DNA of 64,000 bases, taken from the NCBI GenBank assembly GCA_937891735.1, contig CALAGR010000207.1:8972-72971 (forward strand), in the 5' to 3' direction. A model generated the notes under the pieces. It worked only from the letters and a program-made list of their open reading frames with translations, searched no databases and was not told the origin of the DNA. Origin of the DNA: an uncultured Pseudomonadota bacterium (lineage in GTDB: Bacteria > Myxococcota_A > UBA796 > UBA9615). The translations under genes were made by a program, and so were the position numbers. Below, piece after piece: positions 8,274-64,000 of the stretch (position 1 is the first letter of the stretch; the number at the start of each line of letters is the position of its first letter).

Positions 8274-9698
8274 GTGACCGCGCTCCTCGCCCGCCCGGGT
8301 GCCCTGTGGCTCGACACCGGCAGCCCCGTGGGCAGCGACGGCACGTGGAGCTACGTCGCGGCCGAGCCCGCCGTGTGGGTCCGTGGTCGGGGGACCTGCC
8401 TGGAGCTCCTGCCGGGGCCCCTGGGGGACCGTGGGTGGCTCGCCCGGATCCACTCGACCGATCCCGGGGGCGAGGGCGGCGAGGCCTTTGACCGGCTGGC
8501 CGCGATCAGCCGCGCGCTGTGGCCGGGCCCGGCAGGGCCGACCGTCGTCACCGAGCGCCCCGTGGCCCGCTTCCACGGGGGCTTCGCGGGCTTCTTCTCC
8601 TACGACCTGGGGCGGCGGTTCGAAGACGTGCCGGCGAGCATCGCGCCGCGGCCCACGGACGTGCCCTGGGACTTCGTGGTGGGTCTGTACGACGAGGTGC
8701 TCGCTGTGCACCCGCGGACCGGCGAGCGCCGCGTGCATCGGCTGCCGGGCTCGCTGGGGCGCCTGACCCGGACCGAGACCCTGTTGCCGGACCTGCCCCG
8801 GGTGGACGGGACCTCGCGGCCCGAGCCGGAGCTCACCCAGGCCGAGCACGCCCAGGCCGTCGGGATCATCCGGGAGCAGATCTCCGCCGGCAGCATCTAC
8901 CAGGCGAACCTGACCCTGAGGTTCCGCGCCGCGTGCACGCATCCGGCTGCCCCCCTGACGACCTTCGCGCGGCTCCAACGCGAGCACCCCGCGCCCTACG
9001 CGGCCTACTGCGCCCTGCCTGGGCTGTCCCTGGTGTCCACCTCGCCCGAGTGCTTCCTGGCGCTGGGTCCCGACGGGCGGGTGCTGTCGCGCCCCATCAA
9101 GGGCACCCGGCCGCGGGGCTACCCCCACGGCGGGACCGCCGACGTGGCCCACCGGCTGGAGCTGACGGAGTCGGAGAAGGACCAGGCCGAGCTGACCATG
9201 ATCGTGGACCTGGTGCGCAACGACATCGGACGCGTGGCGGCGCTGGGCTCGGTCAGCCGCGCGCCGGAGATCACGTGCGAGGGCCATCCGACGGTGTGGC
9301 ACCTCGTGTCCGAGGTGGCGGCGCGTCTGGCCCCTGGCAAGGACGCGTTCGATCTGCTGCGGGCGTGCTTTCCGCCTGGAAGCTGCATCGGCGCTCCGAA
9401 GATCCGCGCGATGGCGGTGATCGAGGGGCTCGAGCGAAGCCGCCGCGGCCCCTACACCGGCGCCATCGGATGGCTCGGTGCGGACGGCAGCCTCGGGATG
9501 TCCGTGGCGATCCGCACGCTCGTGTTTCGCGAGGGCGAAGTCACCTACGGAGTGGGGGGCGGGATCGTCTACGACAGCGACCCGGCGGCGGAGTGGGAGG
9601 AGGCCCTGTTGAAGGGTCGCGCGCTCGCCAGGGCCCTGTCTCCAGCCGACTCGTTGATCGACATGCCCTTGACATTGGACATCCGGACGGGAAACTGA
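8274..9698 (+). CDS. pabB: aminodeoxychorismate synthase component I (chorismate-binding enzyme)
   Basis: Chorismate-binding motifs PKIRAMAVIEGLERSRRGPYTGAIGW and SVAIRT are present. At ~474 aa it fits PabB better than TrpE. Confidence 0.8.
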   Translation: MTALLARPGALWLDTGSPVGSDGTWSYVAAEPAVWVRGRGTCLELLPGPLGDRGWLARIHSTDPGGEGGEAFDRLAAISRALWPGPAGPTVVTERPVARFHGGFAGFFSYDLGRRFEDVPASIAPRPTDVPWDFVVGLYDEVLAVHPRTGERRVHRLPGSLGRLTRTETLLPDLPRVDGTSRPEPELTQAEHAQAVGIIREQISAGSIYQANLTLRFRAACTHPAAPLTTFARLQREHPAPYAAYCALPGLSLVSTSPECFLALGPDGRVLSRPIKGTRPRGYPHGGTADVAHRLELTESEKDQAELTMIVDLVRNDIGRVAALGSVSRAPEITCEGHPTVWHLVSEVAARLAPGKDAFDLLRACFPPGSCIGAPKIRAMAVIEGLERSRRGPYTGAIGWLGADGSLGMSVAIRTLVFREGEVTYGVGGGIVYDSDPAAEWEEALLKGRALARALSPADSLIDMPLTLDIRTGN

Positions 9699-9739
9699 GC
9701 ACTCGGCAGCAGGCCCTCACAGCGCCTGGTGGACGAACC

Positions 9740-9763
9740 GACCGGATCCCGGTCTTTCTGTTT
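9740..9763 (+). terminator. intrinsic terminator-like hairpin with T-tract after pabB
   Basis: The sequence GACCGGATCCCGGTC (5-6 bp stem) is followed directly by TTTCTGTTT, about 40 nt past the pabB stop. Confidence 0.45.
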
Positions 9764-9842
9764 CCCGTTCCTGGGGACAGCGGTTCAACAGTCAGCGAGC
9801 CCTCCGTGCAGGCTCGTCCGAACTCATCTGGGAGGTTCCAAC

Positions 9843-11519
9843 GTGCGCTCAACCAACGTGATTCGCGGACTCGGCTTCGCCCTGGCTCTCGCCTCTGTAG
9901 GGGCGATGGCCGGCTGCTCCGAGACCGTCCTCATCTCCAACCCCGACTCCGCGCCCCCCACCCGGGTCGACGCGGTCATCGAGGTCACCTCGGAGAACCC
10001 CGACAACCCGCTCCTGGTCGACTTCGGTGAAGTCCCGGCGGGCGAGTTCCGGGAGCAGGAAGTCAACATCAAGAACATCGGCACCGACGTGCTGCAGCTC
10101 CAGGACTTCGTCCTGAGCAACACCGCGTCGTTCAGCCTCGTCAACCTCGGCGAGCTGGTGCCCCTGCTGACCCCGGACAGCTCGTGGGTCCTGCGCGTCA
10201 AGTACGAGCCCAGCCAGGATGAGACCATCCAGGCCACGCTCATCGTCGCCAGCAACGACCGCGAGAACCCCGAGGTTCCGGTGTCGCTGCGGGCCGAGGG
10301 CCTCGCCCCGGCCATCGACATCGATCCCGACAGCTTCGACTTCGGCAACCGCGAGCTCGGCTGCGTTGGCTCCCTGGACATCCAGATCGCCAACATCGGC
10401 CGCGCGGACCTGGTCATCAGCGACCTGACGTTCGACGATCTGTCGGGCAACGGCGAGATGGCGCTCGGGGCGGGCGTGACGCTGCCGCTGATCCTGTCCC
10501 CCAACGACGCCACCCTGGTTGAGGTGATCTACACGCCGACCGACGTGCAGCCGGACACGAGCACCCTCACGGTGCTCAGCAACGACCCGCTGCGCCCCTC
10601 GGCGACGGCCACGCAGTTCGGCATCGCCCACCTCGGCGAGTCCAACACCGACCAGTTCGCGCAGGACGGCAACAACGCCACCGACATCCTGTTCGTGGTG
10701 GACAACTCGTGCTCCATGGGCTGGGCGCAGAGCTCGCTGGCCGTCAACTTCGCCTCGTTCGTGCAGATCGTCGAAGCGCTGGACATGGACTACCAGATCG
10801 GCGTGACCACGACGGACGTCGGTGATCAGGGCCACCTCGAGGGCACGACCCGCATCGTGACGCCGAACACGCCGGACCCCGCGGGCGCCTTCGCGTCCAA
10901 CGTCAACCTCGGCGTCTCGGGCTCCGGCATCGAGAAGGGCCTGGACGGCGCCTACCTCGCCCTGTCCAGCCCGGCCATCGATCCCGGCGGCTACAACGAC
11001 GGCTTCATGCGGGACGAGGCGGGCCTGCGCATCATCTCCGTGTCCGACGAGCAGGAGCAGAGCACGCTGCTGTCCAACGGCGACCCGGGCGCGTACGTGA
11101 ACTACTTCCAGGGCCTCAAGACCAACCCCGACCACGTGATCCTGTCGGACATCACCGGCGGGCTGACGGGCTGCTCGGGCGGCAGCGGCAGCGCGTCGTC
11201 GGGCTCCGACTACGTGCAGGCCTCGGTCATGACCGGCGGCATCTCGGCCAGCATCTGCGACCCCAACTGGGTGAGCACCCTGTCCTCGCTGGCGTGGCTG
11301 TCGCAGTCCTTCGCCGACACGTTCGAGCTCAGCAAGACCCCGGTGCCCGAGACCATCGAGGTGCGGCTGTCCACGGACGGCATCAACTTCGTGCCGATCT
11401 ACGTCGGCTGGAGCTACGACTCGGCGCTCAACGCCCTCGTCTTCGACCTGGATCACATCCCGGACAACGGCGACATCATCGAGGCCGAGTACACCGTGCT
11501 CGGCGACTGCGAGGACTAG
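9843..11519 (+). CDS. lipoprotein with choice-of-anchor-D/ASH-like beta-sandwich repeats and a VWA domain
   Basis: The GTG at 9843 follows GGGAGG. Lipobox LASVGAMAGC. Repeated segments resemble FGEVPAGEFREQEVNIKNIGTDVLQL. MIDAS-like motif DILFVVDNSCS is present. Confidence 0.75.
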   Translation: MRSTNVIRGLGFALALASVGAMAGCSETVLISNPDSAPPTRVDAVIEVTSENPDNPLLVDFGEVPAGEFREQEVNIKNIGTDVLQLQDFVLSNTASFSLVNLGELVPLLTPDSSWVLRVKYEPSQDETIQATLIVASNDRENPEVPVSLRAEGLAPAIDIDPDSFDFGNRELGCVGSLDIQIANIGRADLVISDLTFDDLSGNGEMALGAGVTLPLILSPNDATLVEVIYTPTDVQPDTSTLTVLSNDPLRPSATATQFGIAHLGESNTDQFAQDGNNATDILFVVDNSCSMGWAQSSLAVNFASFVQIVEALDMDYQIGVTTTDVGDQGHLEGTTRIVTPNTPDPAGAFASNVNLGVSGSGIEKGLDGAYLALSSPAIDPGGYNDGFMRDEAGLRIISVSDEQEQSTLLSNGDPGAYVNYFQGLKTNPDHVILSDITGGLTGCSGGSGSASSGSDYVQASVMTGGISASICDPNWVSTLSSLAWLSQSFADTFELSKTPVPETIEVRLSTDGINFVPIYVGWSYDSALNALVFDLDHIPDNGDIIEAEYTVLGDCED

Positions 11520-11661
11520 TTCCCGTCCGGGAACGCCCGATCCACCCGATCTCTGCGTCGAACTTCGGGCCAGCTTCGTGCGGCGTACATGAGTACGCCT
11601 CCTCGCAGTCCCTCGTTCTCCTTGACCTCGGGCGCCTCTGACGCCCCCGACCTGGGAACTA
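11517..11661. repeat. copy A of a ~141-nt intergenic element with terminal inverted repeats (MITE-like or structured RNA)
   Basis: The core GTTCCCG...GGGAAC is flanked by TA on both sides. A 126-nt stretch (11535-11660) aligns to 63578-63703 with 9 substitutions and 2 one-nt indels (manual alignment). It begins at the stop TAG of the upstream gene. Confidence 0.75.
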
Positions 11662-11767
11662 CCCCTCCCGCTCATCCGGGGTGCCGGCTGAGAGGGAGGA
11701 CTAGAGCCTCGCGGGGAGACGACCTCTCAGCGATGCGGCCTCGGTCTTCGGACCGGGGCCGTTTCGC

Positions 11768-12025
11768 TTGGTGAACCCAATGCCGATTACCGAGATCGTT
11801 CGTGTGCTCGCTCGCTCCACGACGTCCGATGGCCGGACGCTGGAGCTGCTGTACGACGTGGACGGCAGCTGCAAGGCCGACGAGCAGACGGTCGGGTGGC
11901 CGCGCTTCTGGATCCGCGAGTGGCGCGGCGGCGCCTTGCTGGACATCCACGGGCCGTGCGACGACGAGGACGAGGCGCTGGAACGCGCAGCGGGCATGGG
12001 CGCGGGGTCCTGGCAGACCGATTGA
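11768..12025 (+). CDS. small hypothetical protein (85 aa; alternative ATG at 11780)
   Basis: The ORF has GC3 typical of coding sequence in this window. I recognise no family and see no clear RBS. Confidence 0.45.
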   Translation: MVNPMPITEIVRVLARSTTSDGRTLELLYDVDGSCKADEQTVGWPRFWIREWRGGALLDIHGPCDDEDEALERAAGMGAGSWQTD

Positions 12026-13802: not shown

Positions 13803-15554
13803 TCAGGCGTCCAACCGTCGGAGGAACTCGCCGGGTCCCGCTCCGGGCAGGCCGGGCAGGCCTGGCGTGCGGTTGTCGCCTCCGAGCGGGCCGATCAGGG
13901 CCGTGGCGAGGCGCTCGTGGGCCCCTGCTCGGGCCGGGGCGTGCTGGTCCAACGCCGACCGCAGCTTGTGGTGCACCACGGCGCGGGTCTGTGCGGCGGG
14001 TCGGCCCGGGGCGCCCTGGGCCAGCGCCACCTCCGCCTCGCGCACGCGTCCGCCGTGCAGCAGGACCCGGATCCGCGCGGGGATCGGGAAGGTCAGGGCG
14101 GATAGATCATGGTCGGACAGGTCGGGGCCCCGTCGCTTCGCGGTGGACTCCACCGTGGGTCCGAGGAGGCGGTGCAGCCCCCGCGCGGCGAGGTCGGACA
14201 GCCGGCCGATGCCGCGACTGAGCAGCTCCGAGGGGTCTTCGCCGTCGAGCTCCTGGAACCGCTCGCCGGCCAGCGCCATGGGAAGCTCGGCGAGGGACAG
14301 GCCCGTCTGCAGGCCCCCCGCGGCGCGGCCCGCGGCAGCCAGGAGCGGCACGGGACCGACGCCAGCCACCAGGCGGTCGATGCCCACGCCGGTCTTGAGC
14401 GCGTGCCACGTCTTCAGGGTCAGGCGCCAGTCGTGGTGCAGCCGGATCCGCGTGGCGAGCTCTGCGAGATCCTCGCCGTGCTCCTGCACCGAGGCCCGAC
14501 TCAGCTCCCGGGAGCCCACCCGGCCCGCGAGCAGGCGCATCGCCAGCGACCGCGCCACCGAGAAGTTGATCGACACCGGGGTCAGGGGCGCGTCGGCCCC
14601 CAGCAGGCGCTCCATGGCCATGGTGAGCAGACCCGCGTCCACGTCGATGCGCAGGACGTCCTCGGCCCGCAGCTCCCGGCCCTCCTCGTGCAGGAAGTCC
14701 TCGGCGACCTGGTCCAGCGCCTCCAGGGCGGTGCCGAGGTAGGCGCAGCCAGGGTGCGCCTTGATCGCCAGGGACCAGGTGAGCCAGGCCGTCTTTGCAG
14801 GATCCTGGGCGGGCAAGCCGGTGAGCCAGCCCCGCAGGGGCCGCCCCTGGGCGAAGACCGCGAGGAAGTCCGAGTCGCCGTCGAGCAGGCCCAGCGGACC
14901 CTCCATGCCCGCCTCGGCGAGCTGGGCCATGCGCCATCCGTCCAGGAGCGGGCGGGCCGCCGTCAGGACCTTGCCCCCGCTTCCGAACAGCCCCCAGTCC
15001 ACATGCGGGGCCTGCCCCAGGGCCAGGGCGATGGCGTGCGCGAGGCGCCCGGCGTCCAGCCCGCGCAGCAGCCCGTGCACGAGGGCGCCGCCGACGGAGT
15101 GCAGGAAGGACCACGCCTGTCCGTTCTGCCGACCCGCGAGGCACAGGCCCCCGAGCCGCGCCATCACCTCGTTGGCGGCCAGCTGGGCGCGCAGGGCGTC
15201 GTCCCAGCCGAGCCCCGCCTCCGCCGCGCCGAGCCACGCGGCCCACACCGCGCTGTGGCCGGTGTGCCCGCAGAGCATCCAGTCGTCGTAGTCGTGGGCC
15301 ATCGACAGCGTGGATCCGGCGAGCAGGGCGCCTTCCAGGCACAGCCCCGACAGGCCCGGCGCCACGACGTGATCGCCGGAGCCGAGCCCCCGCGCCAGCT
15401 CCAGGACCGGGCCCACGTCGTCGCTGTCCAGCCCCGCCGCGGCGGCGCCGAGCACCGAGGCGGCCTGCCAGCGCAGTCGCTCCTGCACGCCTGCGGGCGC
15501 ATGGTCCAGCGACAGGGCGCACGCCCACTCGGCCAGGTCGGAGATCGTGCTCAC
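13803..15554 (-). CDS. MmgE/PrpD-family protein
   Basis: The N-terminal region (DLAEWACALSLDHAPAGVQERLRWQAASVLGAAAAG...MAHDYDD...GHTGHSAV) resembles 2-methylcitrate dehydratase-family proteins. The GTG start overlaps the upstream stop (GTGA at 15551-15554). Confidence 0.75.
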   Translation of the reverse strand: MSTISDLAEWACALSLDHAPAGVQERLRWQAASVLGAAAAGLDSDDVGPVLELARGLGSGDHVVAPGLSGLCLEGALLAGSTLSMAHDYDDWMLCGHTGHSAVWAAWLGAAEAGLGWDDALRAQLAANEVMARLGGLCLAGRQNGQAWSFLHSVGGALVHGLLRGLDAGRLAHAIALALGQAPHVDWGLFGSGGKVLTAARPLLDGWRMAQLAEAGMEGPLGLLDGDSDFLAVFAQGRPLRGWLTGLPAQDPAKTAWLTWSLAIKAHPGCAYLGTALEALDQVAEDFLHEEGRELRAEDVLRIDVDAGLLTMAMERLLGADAPLTPVSINFSVARSLAMRLLAGRVGSRELSRASVQEHGEDLAELATRIRLHHDWRLTLKTWHALKTGVGIDRLVAGVGPVPLLAAAGRAAGGLQTGLSLAELPMALAGERFQELDGEDPSELLSRGIGRLSDLAARGLHRLLGPTVESTAKRRGPDLSDHDLSALTFPIPARIRVLLHGGRVREAEVALAQGAPGRPAAQTRAVVHHKLRSALDQHAPARAGAHERLATALIGPLGGDNRTPGLPGLPGAGPGEFLRRLDA

Positions 15555-16865: not shown

Positions 16866-18131
16866 TCAGCCTGGCGCAGAGGCGCCGAGGGCGGCTTGCA
16901 CGCCGGGCTCGCCGAGCGCCGCCACCCCGGCGAAGCGCGGCAGCTCCCGGGCCAGGGCGTCCCGGATCTCCTGGCTGTCGTGCGCGGCCAGCCCGCTCGC
17001 GACGTCCGTGTCCACGTGGGCGAGGACCCTGACGGCGACCTCCCAGCCCGCGGCGGCGCCGGGGATCCCGTGGCCGAGCACCTGGGGAGAGAACCTCACC
17101 GTGCCGTCGTCCGCCACGAAGCTGGAGCCGCCCACGTGCTCGGTGGGCAGCTCGGTGGGCAGGAGCAGCACCGCCTCGCCCGCCGCGCGCAGCATCGCGG
17201 GCTCCAGGAACGCGGCCTGGTGGGCCCGGAAGCCCGCCGCGGGCACCGGGGAGGCGCCGAGCTCGCCGACGATCCAGACCGCCGAGAGGCGATCCAGCGC
17301 GGCGGCGGTGGGGGCCTCCTCGGCCAGCTCCAGCCCCACCTCCAACGCCGCCAGCACTCCGGGCTGCCCGTACACCAGGGTGTGCCGCACGTCGGTGGGC
17401 CAGTCCTGCTCCGGATCGGCTCGGAGCGCGAGCACGCCCCGGTGTCGCAGCGCGCGGATCGTGTCGTCGAGCAGCGGATGCCTGCCGATCTGCAGGACCG
17501 CCACCGGATCTCCCGTGCCCAGCTGGGTGAGCGGCGCGGTGCTGCCCCATCCGCCCAGCCGCTGGCGGGCCCGATGCCGGAGGCGCCGCTCCTCCGCGGA
17601 CACGATCAGGTCCACCACCGGCGGGAGTCCGAGCCCCGCCCGGTCCACCGCCCGCCGCTCCAGCGCGCCGACGGTCCGCCGGAGCTGGTACAGCGTCTCC
17701 AGATCGACGTCGCTGGGATCCACCAGCAGCGACCAAGCCGATCCTTCCCGGCTGTCCCGCAGGCGCGACTCGAGCAGGTGCGTCGCGTCGGTCCACTCCA
17801 GCGGCTGGAAGCCTCTCGTCCCGGCCCGCCAGATCGCCGGTGTGCCGAGTCGGCCCAGATCGCGCAGCGCAGCACGGTCCAGGCGCTGCAGGGCCGCGGC
17901 GTCGGCGAGGCGCGCCGGATCCAGGGCGTCGGCGGTGACCCGGGGCAGGCGCCGCAGACGCCGGTCGCACAGGTGGTTGCCGGGGATCGTGCCGTCCCGC
18001 AGGCCGGACGCTCCGAGGCTGCAGTCGTTGCAGACCCCGTGTCGCAGCACGTCCCATGCGAAGCGCAGCCGCGCCCGGTTGGTCCAGAGCGCGCCCAGGG
18101 CAGGCGCTACGAGTCGGTCCGGGCGTGACAC
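16866..18131 (-). CDS. short, divergent molybdopterin-oxidoreductase (FdhF/YdeP-like, MopB superfamily) protein
   Basis: Balanced composition and high GC3, unlike the mirror plus-strand ORF. The segment order resembles YdeP-type enzymes (GVCNDC..., LEWTDATHLL, LLLPTELPTEHVGG, EIRDALARELPRF), but the protein is only 421 aa. This call is from memory only. Confidence 0.45.
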   Translation of the reverse strand: MSRPDRLVAPALGALWTNRARLRFAWDVLRHGVCNDCSLGASGLRDGTIPGNHLCDRRLRRLPRVTADALDPARLADAAALQRLDRAALRDLGRLGTPAIWRAGTRGFQPLEWTDATHLLESRLRDSREGSAWSLLVDPSDVDLETLYQLRRTVGALERRAVDRAGLGLPPVVDLIVSAEERRLRHRARQRLGGWGSTAPLTQLGTGDPVAVLQIGRHPLLDDTIRALRHRGVLALRADPEQDWPTDVRHTLVYGQPGVLAALEVGLELAEEAPTAAALDRLSAVWIVGELGASPVPAAGFRAHQAAFLEPAMLRAAGEAVLLLPTELPTEHVGGSSFVADDGTVRFSPQVLGHGIPGAAAGWEVAVRVLAHVDTDVASGLAAHDSQEIRDALARELPRFAGVAALGEPGVQAALGASAPG

Positions 18132-18154
18132 GCGCCGATGCTATATCGCCGGGG

Positions 18155-18973
18155 ATGAACCGAACCCCCCGCGAGCCGATCACCCAGCGAGACGTCACCC
18201 GGCTGGAGTCTGGGCAGGGGCGGGCCCTGCTGGACGACGTCGTGGTGGAGGAGCCCTTGGAGATCCGCCTCGGGGACGAGCCCATCGCGGTGGTGATGCG
18301 CACCCCGGGGCACGACATGGAGCTGGCGGTGGGCTTCCTGTTCAGCGAGGGGATCCTGCGGGACCCGGACGATCTGCTGGCCGTGGAGTACTGCTCGGAC
18401 GTGACCGCGGACGCGGCCGGCAACGTGGTGCGGGTGATCGCTCCGAACGCGGACCGGGCGGCCGCCGAGAGCGCGCGCCGCGACATCTACGCGTCGTCGT
18501 CGTGCGGGCTGTGCGGCAAGACCACGCTGGACGCGATCCGGCTGCTCGCCCCGCCCCTGGCCCCGGCCCAGCCGGTGTCTGCGGCGCTGCTCGCCGGGCT
18601 CCCGGATCGTCTGATGGCGGAGCAGTCGGTGTTCACGCGCACGGGGGGCCTGCACGCCGCGGGCCTGTTCCGCGCCACTGGCGAGCTGGTCCTGGTGCGA
18701 GAGGACATCGGCCGCCACAACGCCTGCGACAAGATCCTGGGGGCCATGGCGATGCGGGAGCAGTGGCCGCTGCAGGGGTCGATCCTGATGCTCTCCGGGC
18801 GCGCGTCCTTCGAGATGGTCCAGAAGGCGGCGATGGCCGGCATCGGCACGGTGGTGGCGGTCTCGGCGCCCAGCTCGCTGGCGATCGACTACGCCCGCGA
18901 GGCGGGCATGACCCTCGTCGGCTTCCTGCGAGGCTCCACGATGAACGTGTATGCCGGAGAGGTGACGCGCTGA
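18155..18973 (+). CDS. fdhD: formate dehydrogenase accessory sulfurtransferase FdhD
   Basis: Motifs PLEIRLGDEPIAVVMRTPGHDMELAVGFLFSEGI and SSCGLCGK are present. ATG at 18155. Confidence 0.9.
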   Translation: MNRTPREPITQRDVTRLESGQGRALLDDVVVEEPLEIRLGDEPIAVVMRTPGHDMELAVGFLFSEGILRDPDDLLAVEYCSDVTADAAGNVVRVIAPNADRAAAESARRDIYASSSCGLCGKTTLDAIRLLAPPLAPAQPVSAALLAGLPDRLMAEQSVFTRTGGLHAAGLFRATGELVLVREDIGRHNACDKILGAMAMREQWPLQGSILMLSGRASFEMVQKAAMAGIGTVVAVSAPSSLAIDYAREAGMTLVGFLRGSTMNVYAGEVTR

Positions 18974-18998
18974 TGGATCCGGCGTCCCCGGACGGGAA

Positions 18999-20012
18999 CT
19001 ACCCGCCGATCTGGATCATGGTGCCTTCAAACGGGTTGCTGCCGTCCTCGCCGGTGATGTGGGCGATGGGCTTGCGCATGATCCCCGCGCGGATCGCCAG
19101 CTCCAGGTCGTCGTCCGAGCCCCCCGCGCGCATCACGTCGCGCACCGACACCATCTCGGGCTCGTAGGCGAGGCAGTTCTTGAGCCGCCCGTCCGACGTG
19201 ATCCGCACCCGGTTGCAGGCTTCGCAGAACTGCCGGGACAGCGCGCCGATGGCTCCCACCACCACCTTCGTGCCCGCCACGGCCCAGTAGTTCGCGGGGC
19301 CCGAGCCCTGGGGCCCCTGCACCGGCTGCAGCTCGTACCGCGCCTCCAGGCGGGCGCGGGTGTGCGACCAGGGCACGAGGTTGAAGCGGCTCTCGCCGAA
19401 GGGCATGTACTCGATGAACCGGATGGTCACGGGCAGGTGCGCGAAGCGCTCGACGAACGAGGTGACCTCCAGCTCGTTCATGCCCTCGCAGACCACCACG
19501 TTGAGCTTGAGAGGCAGCCAGTCCAGCGCCACCACCGCCTCGATGCCAGCGAGCACGTCGTCGAGTCGATCCACCCGGGCCAGCGCGATGAAGTGCTCCC
19601 GGTCGAGCGTGTCGATGCTGATGTTGAGGCGCGTGAGCCCCGCCTTCTTCAGGGCGGGCCCGATCTTCGCGAGGTTCCAGCCGTTGGTGGTCATGGAGAG
19701 GTCCCGCAGCAGGGGCAGCGCCCCCAGCCGGCCCACCAGCTCGAGGATGTCCTTGCGCACGGTGGGCTCGCCGCCCGTCAGACGGATCCGGTCGACCCCC
19801 ATCTCCGACAGCACCCGCCCCAGCCGCTCGATCTCCTCGAACGTCATCAGCTCGCTGCGCTCGGTGAACTCGATGCCCTCCTCGGGCATGCAGTACACGC
19901 AGCGGAAGTTGCAGCGATCCGTCACCGACAGGCGCACGTAGTGGATGCGCCGACCGAACGGATCGATGATCGCGCCCCGAGGCGGCCGCGGTGGTGGTGC
20001 TTGCTGGCCCAT
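18999..20012 (-). CDS. moaA: GTP 3',8-cyclase (radical SAM, molybdenum cofactor biosynthesis)
   Basis: Motif LSVTDRCNFRCVYCMPEEG (CX3CX2C) is present. The ATG at 20012 overlaps the upstream stop by 1 nt (TGATG). The longest ORF would start at 20051. Confidence 0.9.
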   Translation of the reverse strand: MGQQAPPPRPPRGAIIDPFGRRIHYVRLSVTDRCNFRCVYCMPEEGIEFTERSELMTFEEIERLGRVLSEMGVDRIRLTGGEPTVRKDILELVGRLGALPLLRDLSMTTNGWNLAKIGPALKKAGLTRLNISIDTLDREHFIALARVDRLDDVLAGIEAVVALDWLPLKLNVVVCEGMNELEVTSFVERFAHLPVTIRFIEYMPFGESRFNLVPWSHTRARLEARYELQPVQGPQGSGPANYWAVAGTKVVVGAIGALSRQFCEACNRVRITSDGRLKNCLAYEPEMVSVRDVMRAGGSDDDLELAIRAGIMRKPIAHITGEDGSNPFEGTMIQIGG

Positions 20013-21151
20013 CAACCGGGATCGATAGCCTGATCGAGGCTCTTCAGCCACTCTTGCATGCGGCCGGCCAGATCTCCGAAGGCCAGGCTCGCGTCCGACT
20101 CGGGGGCGTCGAGCAGCACCGGGCGTCCACTGTCACCGCCTTCGCGCACGCGACCATCCAAGGGGATCCGCCCCAGGAAGGGCACCCGCAGCCGGGCCGC
20201 TTCACGCTCCCCGCCGCCGTCCCCGAATGGATGGGACAGGGCGTCGCAGTCCGGGCAGCGCCAGCTCGCCATGTTCTCCACGAGGCCCAGGACCGGCACG
20301 TCCAGACGGCGAAACATCTCGAGTCCGCGGGCCGCGTCGATCAGCGCGATGTCCTGGGGGGTGGACACGATGATCGCCCCGTCGAGCACCGCCCGCTGCA
20401 CCAGGCTCAGCTGCACGTCGCCCGTGCCCGGGGGCAGGTCGATGATCAGCACGTCGAGCCCCGGCCAGGCCGTCTTCTGGAGCATGTCCCGGACCATGCG
20501 CTGCACGAGGGGCCCGCGCCACATCACCGACTTGTCCGGGTTCACCATCAGCCCGAGGGACAGGAAGGGCAGGCCGTGAGCGCTCGGCGGCTGGAACACC
20601 CCGTCGTCCCGGGTGGGCGCCGCGAAGGACCCCAGCATGGTGGGCATCGACGGTCCATACACGTCCGCGTCGAGCAGCCCGGTGCGCACTCCGCGCGCGG
20701 CCAGCGCCAGCGCCAGGTTCACCGCCACCGTGGACTTGCCGACCCCGCCCTTTCCCGACGCCACGGCGAGCACCCGCCGCGCACCCTGGACGGGCTCCGG
20801 GGTGGGGGTCCGTCCTCCCTCCTTGGGGCCGCTGATCCCTGGGCGCGAGCCGATCTCCTGAGGTCCCGCGCCCCGGGGCGCCATGCCCAGCCGACCCCGC
20901 GCGCGGTCCTTGGAGCCAGGCGCCGACACGGGCCGGGGGGCCAGCCACTGCAGATCCGCGTCGGCGGCTTCCGCTCCGAGCGCCGCCGCCAGCGCCGCCT
21001 CGAAGCGCAGCCGCTCGCTCCAGGACGCCGATGAGCGGCCGCGCAGCACGAACCCTCCGGCATCCCGGGGTGCGGCGGCGACCAGGTGGGCTTGCACCCC
21101 GGTGGCCTCGGCGGCGTCGAGCCAGGTGCGGCGGAGCTGATCGATGTTCAT
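20012..21151 (-). CDS. apbC: Mrp/ApbC-type iron-sulfur cluster carrier ATPase
   Basis: Motifs SGKGGVGKSTVAVNLA and WRCPDCDALSHPFG are present. Confidence 0.9.
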   Translation of the reverse strand: MNIDQLRRTWLDAAEATGVQAHLVAAAPRDAGGFVLRGRSSASWSERLRFEAALAAALGAEAADADLQWLAPRPVSAPGSKDRARGRLGMAPRGAGPQEIGSRPGISGPKEGGRTPTPEPVQGARRVLAVASGKGGVGKSTVAVNLALALAARGVRTGLLDADVYGPSMPTMLGSFAAPTRDDGVFQPPSAHGLPFLSLGLMVNPDKSVMWRGPLVQRMVRDMLQKTAWPGLDVLIIDLPPGTGDVQLSLVQRAVLDGAIIVSTPQDIALIDAARGLEMFRRLDVPVLGLVENMASWRCPDCDALSHPFGDGGGEREAARLRVPFLGRIPLDGRVREGGDSGRPVLLDAPESDASLAFGDLAGRMQEWLKSLDQAIDPG

Positions 21152-62994: not shown

Positions 62995-63561
62995 ATGAAG
63001 AAGCTCGCGTTGATGTTCGTTGCCGCGCTGCTGGCCGCCCCCTCGGCGTTCGCCGGCAACGCCGATCCCGACGCGCTGCCCCAGATCGGCGCGGTCGCCC
63101 CGGCCTTCGGCCTGTACCCGTTCGACACGAAGTCCTCGGTCGAGCAGTTCAAGGACAAGGTCGAGCTCGACGATCACTGCGGCATCCGCGCCTCGGACAC
63201 CAAGCTGGTGCTCATCGTGTTCGCCAACGCCATCTCCCTGGCCGGTGACCTCGAGTACGCCGAGGGCTGGCACAAGAAGCACGGCAAGGCGGGCCTGGTG
63301 CCCATCGTGATCTCCACCGATCCGGCCTCGCAGGCGGTGCGCGAGGTGCTGGCGAAGAGCAAGTACACGTTCCCGATCCTGGACGACAAGTTCAAGATCG
63401 TAGCGGCCCGCTACGGCGTCTCGTCCGCTCCGTTCACGTTCCTGCTGGATGGCGAGTGCCGCACGCTGGGGCTGAGCGACAAGGCGTTGAGCGTGGACGC
63501 GGAGCGCCTCGGCACGACCATCGCGACGCTGCTGTCAGGCAAGGCCGGCGAAATCGAGTAG
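62995..63561 (+). CDS. secreted thioredoxin-fold (TlpA/redoxin-like) protein lacking the CXXC motif
   Basis: Signal MKKLALMFVAALLAAPSAFA is present. Redoxin-like layout (APAFGL...LVLIVFANAISLAGD...FPILDD...YGVSSAPFTFLLD) has AISL where WCxxC is expected. Confidence 0.6.
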   Translation: MKKLALMFVAALLAAPSAFAGNADPDALPQIGAVAPAFGLYPFDTKSSVEQFKDKVELDDHCGIRASDTKLVLIVFANAISLAGDLEYAEGWHKKHGKAGLVPIVISTDPASQAVREVLAKSKYTFPILDDKFKIVAARYGVSSAPFTFLLDGECRTLGLSDKALSVDAERLGTTIATLLSGKAGEIE

Positions 63562-63704
63562 TTCCCGGGCGGGGGCAGCCCGATCCACCCGATCTCGGCG
63601 TCGACCTTCAGGCCCGCTTCGTGCGGCGTACAAAAGTACGCCTCCTTGCGGTCCCTCGTCCTCCTTGACCTCGGGCGCCTCTGACGCCCCCACCTCGGGA
63701 ACTG
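63559..63704. repeat. copy B of the ~141-nt intergenic element
   Basis: It starts at the stop TAG of the upstream gene, has the same terminal inverted repeats (AGTTCCCG...CGGGAACT) and the same internal hairpin GGCGTAC-NNNN-GTACGCC. See copy A. Confidence 0.75.
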
Positions 63705-63734
63705 CCCGTGCGGGGGTTGGGTCTCCGATGAGAG

Positions 63735-64000
63735 CTAGACCGTCACGTCCAGGCGCTTGATCTTGTCGTAGAGCGCCCGCGCGCTGATCCCCAGGCGCGC
63801 GGCGGCCTTGCCCCGATGCCCCGCCGTGGCGTTCAACGCCCTGCGGATCATCGCCCGCTCGACCTCTTGTAGGGTCCAGCCGTCGAACTCCTCGCCGCAC
63901 TGCGGGTTGGCCACCGGGACGTCGCTGACCGTGGTGGCCCCCTGCGTGGCCTCATCGACCATGTCGCGGAGCGGCTGGGGCAGGAACCGCGTCTCGAGCT
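63735..64000 (-). CDS. sigma-54 enhancer-binding protein, C-terminal fragment (5' part beyond window end)
   Basis: A Fis-type HTH (IRRALNATAGHRGKAAARLGISARALYDKIKRL) is present. The frame stays open upstream of the listed Met to the window edge (...LETRFLPQPLRDM). Confidence 0.7.
   Translation of the reverse strand, partial: LETRFLPQPLRDMVDEATQGATTVSDVPVANPQCGEEFDGWTLQEVERAMIRRALNATAGHRGKAAARLGISARALYDKIKRLDVTV

Follow-up and report, generated by a model that had tools for sequence, protein, structure and literature searches.

The ERIC/IRU repeats of the Enterobacteriaceae and the Correia elements of Neisseria are ~105-160 nt in length, possess terminal inverted repeats, insert at TA and duplicate this dinucleotide only, lie in transcribed intergenic regions and adopt a rod-like fold over the whole element. 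To our knowledge, no transposase has been identified for either group, and each is confined to one family or genus. Here, we analyzed a repeat in a 64,000-nt stretch of DNA (hereafter, the window; positions 8,972 to 72,971 of contig CALAGR010000207.1, assembly GCA_937891735.1) from an uncultured Pseudomonadota bacterium placed in the Myxococcota_A by GTDB. The repeat is a non-coding mobile element of ~177 nt that inserts at TA, mostly onto TAG stop codons in its GC-rich host, and it belongs to a new, unnamed MITE (miniature inverted-repeat transposable element) family, the core sequences of which had already been listed for Geobacter metallireducens in 2009. In its size, inverted repeats, junction TA and rod-like fold, it is similar to the ERIC/IRU and Correia elements, which have been reviewed elsewhere (PMC3184786; PMC10969869). 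In contrast to these elements, with which it shares no sequence similarity, the present family duplicates 6-8 bp of target and is spread over three phyla or more, among which compensatory changes are seen.

Repetitive extragenic palindromic (REP) elements are units of 35-40 nt that are tied to RAYT transposases and produce no target duplication. Liang, Rudd and Deutscher are said to have reported in 2015 that REP elements of Escherichia coli are found close to stop codons. The element described here likewise places a stable hairpin within a few bases of the stop, where it could affect termination or mRNA 3'-end stability; it differs from the short, RAYT-linked E. coli units, which lack a target duplication, in that it duplicates its target. 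Within the host group of the present family, a MITE known as Chunjie was reportedly described by Chen et al. in 2008. This, too, has inverted-repeat ends and direct repeats, and it measures 178-235 bp. Identity with Chunjie was ruled out, however, as the reference copy in Geobacter uraniireducens Rf4 (2632106-2632324; PMC6042816) has ends CAGCGTTGTCCGGTTTGGTTT, a 9-bp direct repeat (ACGACCGGT) and no similarity to the present family. Chunjie shares the G. uraniireducens genome (5,136,364 nt) with the present family, of which at least 19 copies were counted there. Integron attC sites (RYYYAAC...GTTRRRY, in tandem cassettes) were rejected by eye, given that the ends GTTCCCG/CGGGAAC swap purines and pyrimidines and that the copies are dispersed among housekeeping genes.

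The earlier record of the family consists of "predicted short RNA elements", 24 in number (Gmet_R1001-R1024), listed by Aklujkar et al. (2009; PMC2700814, Additional file 4) as equivalents of GSU0160.1. These are members of the same family: they share the central palindrome (GRCGTAGC-GCTG-CTACGCC), flanked by ...CTTGTGCG and CCTCCGCG..., as well as the CCTTGAC motif and the peripheral stems, and they are likewise multi-copy and intergenic. When Gmet_R1024 and Gmet_R1022 were compared with the core of one of the window's copies (copy A, see below), the mean column identity was 80% and all of the invariant blocks were common. The portions of PMC2700814 that deal with these elements give a core of ~113 nt only, as a putative RNA of unknown function, and in those portions there is no mention of inverted-repeat ends, of duplicated target sites, of mobility, of a strand that folds or of any spread beyond the Geobacteraceae and Desulfotalea. 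No match was obtained in Rfam 15 at the gathering threshold, either for the window or for four loci from other phyla, and the interval 11400-11800 yielded only noise at E<=10. As far as the literature searched and Rfam show, the family has no name, model or known transposase, and is largely undescribed.

Structure and true ends of the element

An earlier note on this DNA had proposed that 11519-11659 and 63561-63702 are the same repeat of ~141 nt, with unrelated flanking genes. Pairwise alignment confirmed that these two stretches (hereafter, copies A and B; 141 and 142 nt, respectively) are homologous, with 17 substitutions, one indel and 87% identity. The note had counted nine substitutions and two indels in the core, where MAFFT returned 13 substitutions over 125 nt, a small difference of alignment. 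Since BLAST detected 46 matches in the genome, of which 24 cover at least 120 nt, the homology of both stretches is far above chance level. The flanking genes are indeed unrelated, i.e., an Ig-like lipoprotein gene for copy A, and an AhpC/thioredoxin-like gene with a convergent Fis-HTH regulator for copy B.

The element does not, however, end at 11659 or 11661 as had been supposed. Direct repeats, copy-to-copy alignment and empty sites delimit a full-length copy A of 177 nt (11519-11695), ~36 nt longer than the initial estimate, with a second hairpin that runs to 11695. Copy A is described here in the plus orientation used by the earlier note, which is co-directional with the lipoprotein gene, whereas the strand given for a feature of the element is its folding strand, i.e., minus for copy A. 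At the left end is a terminal inverted repeat, H1 (GTTCCCGTCCGGGAAC; 11519-11534), consisting of the palindrome GTTCCCG TC CGGGAAC. This is followed by a conserved core of ~110 nt (11535-11643, minus), for which covariation and an asymmetry in G-U pairs predict a rod-like fold. Within the core, an apical hairpin, GGCGTAC-N4-GTACGCC (11582-11599, minus), has an invariant stem and a variable loop at 11589-11592. The segment H1' (CCCCCGACCTGGGAAC; 11644-11659), which repeats the terminal palindrome in degenerate form farther inside the element, pairs with H1 and closes the rod. It was this segment that had been taken for the right end; the inverted-repeat sequences GTTCCCG...GGGAAC are present as described, but GGGAAC is not the right terminus, which lies in the second hairpin, H2 (CCCCTCCCGCTCATCCGG GGTG CCGGCTGAGAGG; 11662-11695). 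H2 is seen in most copies of the genome, and its outer arm constitutes the right terminal inverted repeat.

By comparison of copies, which revealed that similarity extends past GGGAAC-TA, the H2 consensus in the window's genome was determined as CCGCAACCGCTCATCCGG-GGTTT-CCGGATGAG. The equivalent of H2 in Geobacteraceae is TAGTTTCTCATCCGGAGTTTCCGGATGGAAAC. In Geotalea, the left end (AGTTTCCATCCGGAAAC) and the reverse complement of the right end agree at 16 of 17 positions; in the window's genome, the right end is more degenerate. A search of two complete genomes with the 16-mer terminus, allowing at most one mismatch, gave 87 and 38 matches, almost always arranged as inverted pairs 162 nt apart. 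Across copies, the element measures 174-190 nt and has no coding capacity. It thus displays the small non-coding size, terminal inverted repeats, target duplication and dispersed copies with empty sites that define MITEs in general; an autonomous partner with matching ends was not found, either in the window's assembly or in two complete genomes with 20-45 copies.

Both read-through of the TAG and a small open reading frame (ORF) inside the element were considered and ruled out, given that the frame from stop to element differs between copies and that the sole ATG with a Shine-Dalgarno-like site nearby falls within the apical hairpin loop, which is variable between copies. The ORFs that were called mechanically through copy A (11589-11774 and 11294-11641 on the plus strand, 9849-11675 on the minus strand) are artefacts of high GC content, which gene-calling programs could record as hypothetical proteins.

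Insertion at TA, empty sites and stop codons

The eight bases to the left of copy A, GAGGACTA (11511-11518, plus), are repeated exactly at 11696-11703 (plus), directly after H2, and are then followed by a G at 11704. The last two bases of the left copy provide the TA of the lipoprotein stop codon (TAG, 11517-11519, plus), the G of which is base 1 of the element. Although the TA flanks of copy A had been read correctly (TA-GTTCCC...GGGAAC-TA), TA is not the entire duplication but the last two bases of a longer one. In copy A, a comparison by eye showed complementarity between the inner H2 arm and the duplicated target at six of nine positions; we treated this as chance because the two other clean copies lack it. 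In copy B (63561-63734, minus; 174 nt, with a degenerate H2), the element occupies the entire gap between two convergent genes. Its first G completes the TAG stop of the AhpC/thioredoxin-like gene (63559-63561, plus), and directly after its last base stands CTA (63735-63737), which on the minus strand reads TAG and terminates the convergent gene for the Fis-type HTH regulator. Junctions and ORF ends therefore agree with the proposal that, in both copies, the upstream stop is made of the flanking TA and the first G of the element.

Of 107 copies, 40 showed a perfect direct repeat, 5 nt or longer, at a fixed position 92-93 nt past the central hairpin. Repeat length had its mode at 6 nt (18 copies), with 7 nt next (nine copies), and repeats of at least 6 nt were present in 34 of 107 copies, compared with 1.4 expected when flanks were swapped between copies. 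From the empty sites reconstructed for 31 copies, the target was rebuilt as TANNTA followed by a purine (TANNTA-R). Duplications in the window's genome are ~8 bp in length and, of this target, have kept only the final TA; the clean repeats are GAGGACTA in copy A, GAGGCGTA and ATGTTCTA, and several other copies have diverged ones. A 2-bp TA duplication of the IS630 type, as had been suggested for this element, is not what was found, the duplication being 6 bp (TANNTA) in other phyla and ~8 bp here.

The window's genome is a 7.87-Mb assembly of 542 contigs, with a GC content of 70.9% and 95% completeness. The 46 BLAST matches are 81-100% identical; the 24 that cover at least 120 nt are mostly 91-97% identical, ~23 copies being full-length, and the remaining ~20 are partial or diverged. 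Two congeneric species gave 21 and 14 matches, and six of 41 related genomes matched, most being without any. We next searched the concatenated flanks of 23 copies against two related species (G001 and G002) and aligned the matches. The loci orthologous to copies A, B, C240, C130 and C408 were found without the element in these relatives, the empty site of copy B being in G001 (L162). At the empty copy A sites of G001 and G002, GAGGACTAG occurs once, and ...GACTGCGAGGACTAG is followed directly by the downstream sequence, including a terminator-like hairpin. The empty copy A site carries TAG, and this TAG therefore predates the insertion; TAG was already present at the empty copy B and C240 sites also. 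Empty sites were thus confirmed at five orthologous loci in two related species, and the ancestral stop codon in the insert-free orthologues of copies A, B and C240 is a pre-existing TAG.

Seventeen of the 24 copies in the window's genome abut the end of an ORF, 13 exactly and four within 4 nt. TAG accounts for 16 of these 17 stops, compared with 31% genome-wide (31.2% TAG, 66.9% TGA and 1.9% TAA in a set of 3,914 long ORFs whose third codon positions are GC-rich). The genome has 7.4 TA per kb and 35,535 TAG trinucleotides, counting both strands. The association is weaker in lower-GC hosts, where the boundary TAG coincided exactly with the end of an ORF of 100 codons or more in 19 of 76 copies; in these hosts, the H1 end faced the hit gene ten times and the H2 end once. 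Together with the multiple copies and the empty sites, the 16 TAG codons among 17 abutted stops uphold the view of a non-autonomous mobile element that lands on the TA of stop codons. Because the left end of the element begins with G, insertion at the TA of a TAG restores the stop and leaves the protein unchanged, and because TA is rare and most TA or TAG sites are intragenic, the insertions that survive would accumulate on TAG stops. We infer that the stop-codon pattern arises from a preference for a TA target combined with selection against insertions in genes and promoters.

Decay products of the element were found in other genomes, i.e., solo H2 hairpins, a 53-nt form and a lone 16-nt palindrome, which retain flanking repeats of 6-7 nt. 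Such remnants are explained by deletion between direct repeats that belong to the element itself. One decay remnant is present in the window, where a terminal hairpin of this family stands alone (GTCCCCGGACGGGAAC followed by TA; 18984-19001, minus) in the 25-nt gap between two convergent ORFs (18056-18973, plus; 18999-20051, minus), where a C and the TA together form the TAG stop of the latter ORF.

With respect to its surroundings, copy A has as its upstream neighbour the lipoprotein gene (9729-11519, plus), which encodes an Ig-like (HYDIN/ASH-type) protein of 596 aa. A terminator-like hairpin of this gene, with a T-rich tail, lies 3' of copy A (11742-11761, plus). At the orthologous locus in G001, the same hairpin directly follows the lipoprotein stop, with no element in between. 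As copy A is located between the stop codon and the terminator-like hairpin, it is probably part of the 3' untranslated region (UTR) of the lipoprotein gene.

Several rearranged forms were also observed. In the window's genome, members of a diverged core subfamily are strung head to tail in tandem arrays that repeat every ~130-160 nt (C109:37635-37884, C305:5308-5562, C85:2789-2998 and C463:89-189). Further arrays are found at the contig ends of C534 and C162, and several of the diverged-core arrays break contigs. This subfamily has other peripheral stems and shows compensatory changes in the apical stem (GTGG/CCAC, GTGT/ACAC). Elsewhere in this genome (C459:~2331-2380 and C22:~15040-15087), the right end of two copies is followed by two to three tandem repeats of a 15-20-nt unit derived from the element's own end, this being CCGACCTGGGAACTC in C459 and a longer unit with CGACCTGGGAACTACG in C22. 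Two truncated copies, at C477:7282 onward in this genome and in L075, are likewise followed by short tandem repeats, of a CTTGGCCTGCTGCG unit and of GCTTGCC heptamers, respectively. The tandem repeats after truncated copies may mark repeat-prone repair at broken copies.

A strand-specific fold and its distribution

The fold was analyzed by aligning 32 diverse copies on the opposite strand from that shown by the earlier note. The predicted rod comprises 43 pairs, 30 of which exhibit compensatory double changes. In all, 95.1% of the cells of the alignment are paired, as compared with 81.5% in shuffles (none of 500 reached the observed value) and 30-47% when partners were slid. G-U cells number 96, and C-A cells, the form in which a G-U pair of the opposite strand would show here, number 11, a difference that favours the minus strand. 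For copy A, the predicted folding energy was -89 kcal/mol (z -3.77) on the minus strand versus -69.6 kcal/mol (z -1.82) on the plus strand. The apical stem GGCGUAC/GUACGCC, with a free 4-nt loop, is near-invariant, appearing as GUGG/CCAC or GUGU/ACAC in diverged members in the window's genome. This stem and the flanking single-stranded motifs are invariant across at least three phyla. The folding strand is antisense to the gene whose stop is hit. Because the structure is strand-specific (96 G-U versus 11 C-A cells), a single strand, as RNA or as DNA, has been selected for its ability to fold, antisense to the abutting gene.

To determine how widely the family is distributed, one genome per species was scanned with the most conserved stretch, TGCGGCGTAC-N4-GTACGCCTCC, and at least 118 loci were found. 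Among the matches listed were Geobacter and other Geobacteraceae, Desulfobacterales, Desulfatiglandales, Syntrophobacteraceae, Thermoanaerobaculales (Acidobacteriota) and unclassified "Deltaproteobacteria" metagenome-assembled genomes (MAGs). The family is present in at least three bacterial phyla. The window's genome, a further host, is probably that of a myxobacterium-like organism, to judge from its base composition and size. The scan matches have a common architecture, consisting of TAG-TTTCC(A/G)TCCGGAAA, the core, TTTCCGAATCGGAAAC and a second hairpin ending CCGGATGGAAAC. Copy numbers in ten other genomes ranged from 10 to more than 44 per genome.

In addition, four loci from Geobacteraceae, Desulfatiglandales and Desulfuromonadales (L065, L072, L088 and L113) possess a nested extra insert of ~55-80 nt at a fixed point, between the core CTTG and TGCGGCG (for example, GACTCGGGCCATCCATGGCCCTCGCCCTTCGGGCGCCCTGACGGGCGTCCCATTCCGCTATCCTGCGGAATG). 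Inserts at this point were also seen in G045:C1 near 424100, 276900 and 750700. The nested sequence has the look of another small element, mobile or structured, that favours a site of its own.

Mobilization and competing explanations

On balance, we consider it likely, with good confidence, that the element is a MITE spread by a transposase acting in trans at a TA-containing target, and that its accumulation on stop codons is the result of selection. Under the proposed mechanism, the transposase, most likely of the DDE type, would cut the target with a stagger, this target being TANNTA in low-GC hosts, where 6 bp are duplicated, and NNNNNNTA in the window's genome, where the duplication is of ~8 bp. 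The left-end G would rebuild TAG with the TA of the target, leaving the protein unchanged, and those insertions that survive selection would gather on TAG stops, often between convergent genes. The core rod, either as RNA or as DNA during mobilization, may be needed for propagation of the element or for its tolerance by the host.

Several observations weigh against this model. A DDE transposase needs no strand-specific single-stranded fold, and the most conserved feature of the family is therefore unexplained by it, as is the tendency, 10 to 1, for H1 and not H2 to face the gene in hosts in which each end starts with G. The length of the duplication varies by lineage (6-7 bp versus ~8 bp), many copies are without a clear duplication, and only three to four copies in the window's genome have a clean one. 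Nor was a mobilizing enzyme found. In the window's assembly, multi-copy repeats of at least 400 bp are almost nil, and pairs of terminal repeats spaced at the length of an insertion sequence (IS) were not found. Two complete genomes with 20-45 copies, perfect ends and recent bursts contained no inverted 16-mer pair at IS length, the unpaired 16-mer matches in these genomes being remnants. The genes located between neighbouring copies are ordinary, and no autonomous partner was found there. The negative result from the window's assembly is a weak one, as insertion sequences are often lost from MAGs; that from the complete genomes is stronger.

The alternative that survives best, although we regard it as doubtful, is that the element's function as a structured RNA comes first, whether as a small RNA, as a module of the 3' end or as an insulator that guards against antisense transcription, its mobility being secondary. 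According to this explanation, the rod would be transcribed antisense to the abutting gene and would act via the purine-rich motifs AAGGAG and GGAGG exposed on the folding strand, or as a processing or termination signal. The strong cross-phylum covariation, the strand-specific fold, the invariance of the apical stem and its flanking single-stranded motifs over at least three phyla, and the 10-to-1 orientation bias with respect to the abutting gene would all be expected of such an RNA, as would the annotation of the Geobacter metallireducens core, in the additional file of Aklujkar et al. (2009; PMC2700814), as predicted short RNA elements. Against this, no promoter-like site was found at copy A and Rfam gave no match. 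Furthermore, the copies of a given genome hardly differ from one another and lie between target duplications, as in recent transposition and not as in an old gene family, and the mRNA of the abutting gene, in the common orientation, carries the poorly folding strand. The suggestion of the earlier note that the repeat might be a 3'-UTR RNA module thus fares unevenly, being supported by the conserved, covarying structure and opposed by a folding strand that is antisense to the abutting gene.

Rather unlikely, in our estimation, is that the rod is itself the working part, either recognized by machinery other than a classical DDE transposase or belonging to a host-domesticated RNA that was spread by transposition and shields the ends of genes against convergent transcription. 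Either version would explain the cross-phylum covariation, the 10-to-1 bias and the lack of an autonomous partner.

We think it improbable that the element is an IS630/Tc1-mariner-derived MITE that duplicates TA alone, typically in CTAG, as the earlier note had it. TA is indeed found at both junctions, with the left junction most often reading CTA before the G of the element, and the terminal inverted repeats and lack of coding capacity are as expected for such a MITE. However, of the 40 copies scored, 27 have a duplication of 6-7 bp, and in the window's genome its length is at least 8 bp; this model is contradicted because the duplication is longer than the TA dinucleotide. The IS630-like transposase with matching ends that it calls for was not found: PF13358 (IS630 DDE_3) had no match in the assembly, while control genomes did match, and no cognate transposase was detected in any genome examined.

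Least probable of all is a relationship to the REP/REPIN-RAYT or IS200/IS605 (PATE) type, in which TAG-preceded hairpins are moved as one folded strand by a Y1 (HUH) transposase; for while each end of the element is a hairpin after TAG, resembling the GTAG plus hairpin of REPs, two inverted hairpins surround the rod as in REPINs, and the fold is strand-specific, such families make no target duplications, which are present here, PF01797 (Y1, RAYT/IS200) had no match in the 95%-complete assembly but did match in control genomes, and the majority orientation would expose the poorly folding strand on the lagging-strand template, assuming that the record starts at the origin. That orientation was counted by hand in G046:C1 (a complete genome of 4,304,501 nt), where it correlates with genome half, nine copies being plus and three minus below 2.1 Mb, and nine plus and 19 minus above. 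The correlation could be cited in support of this type of element, but fits either a gene-strand bias or a link to replication.

The present family of MITEs is set apart by its multi-phylum span, its well-supported strand-specific structure and the absence of any detectable partner transposase. With 10-45 copies per genome, it takes up room between the genes of many anaerobes of environmental importance, and it accounts for the unusually long spacers in some gene pairs. Its recognition prevents misannotation of copies as small RNAs or as false ORFs, such as that at 11589-11774. The family also provides a natural example of how target preference and base composition can steer a transposon onto stop codons while leaving proteins unchanged. 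If the rod is functional, it would represent an RNA or DNA structure that has been spread across phyla by transposition.

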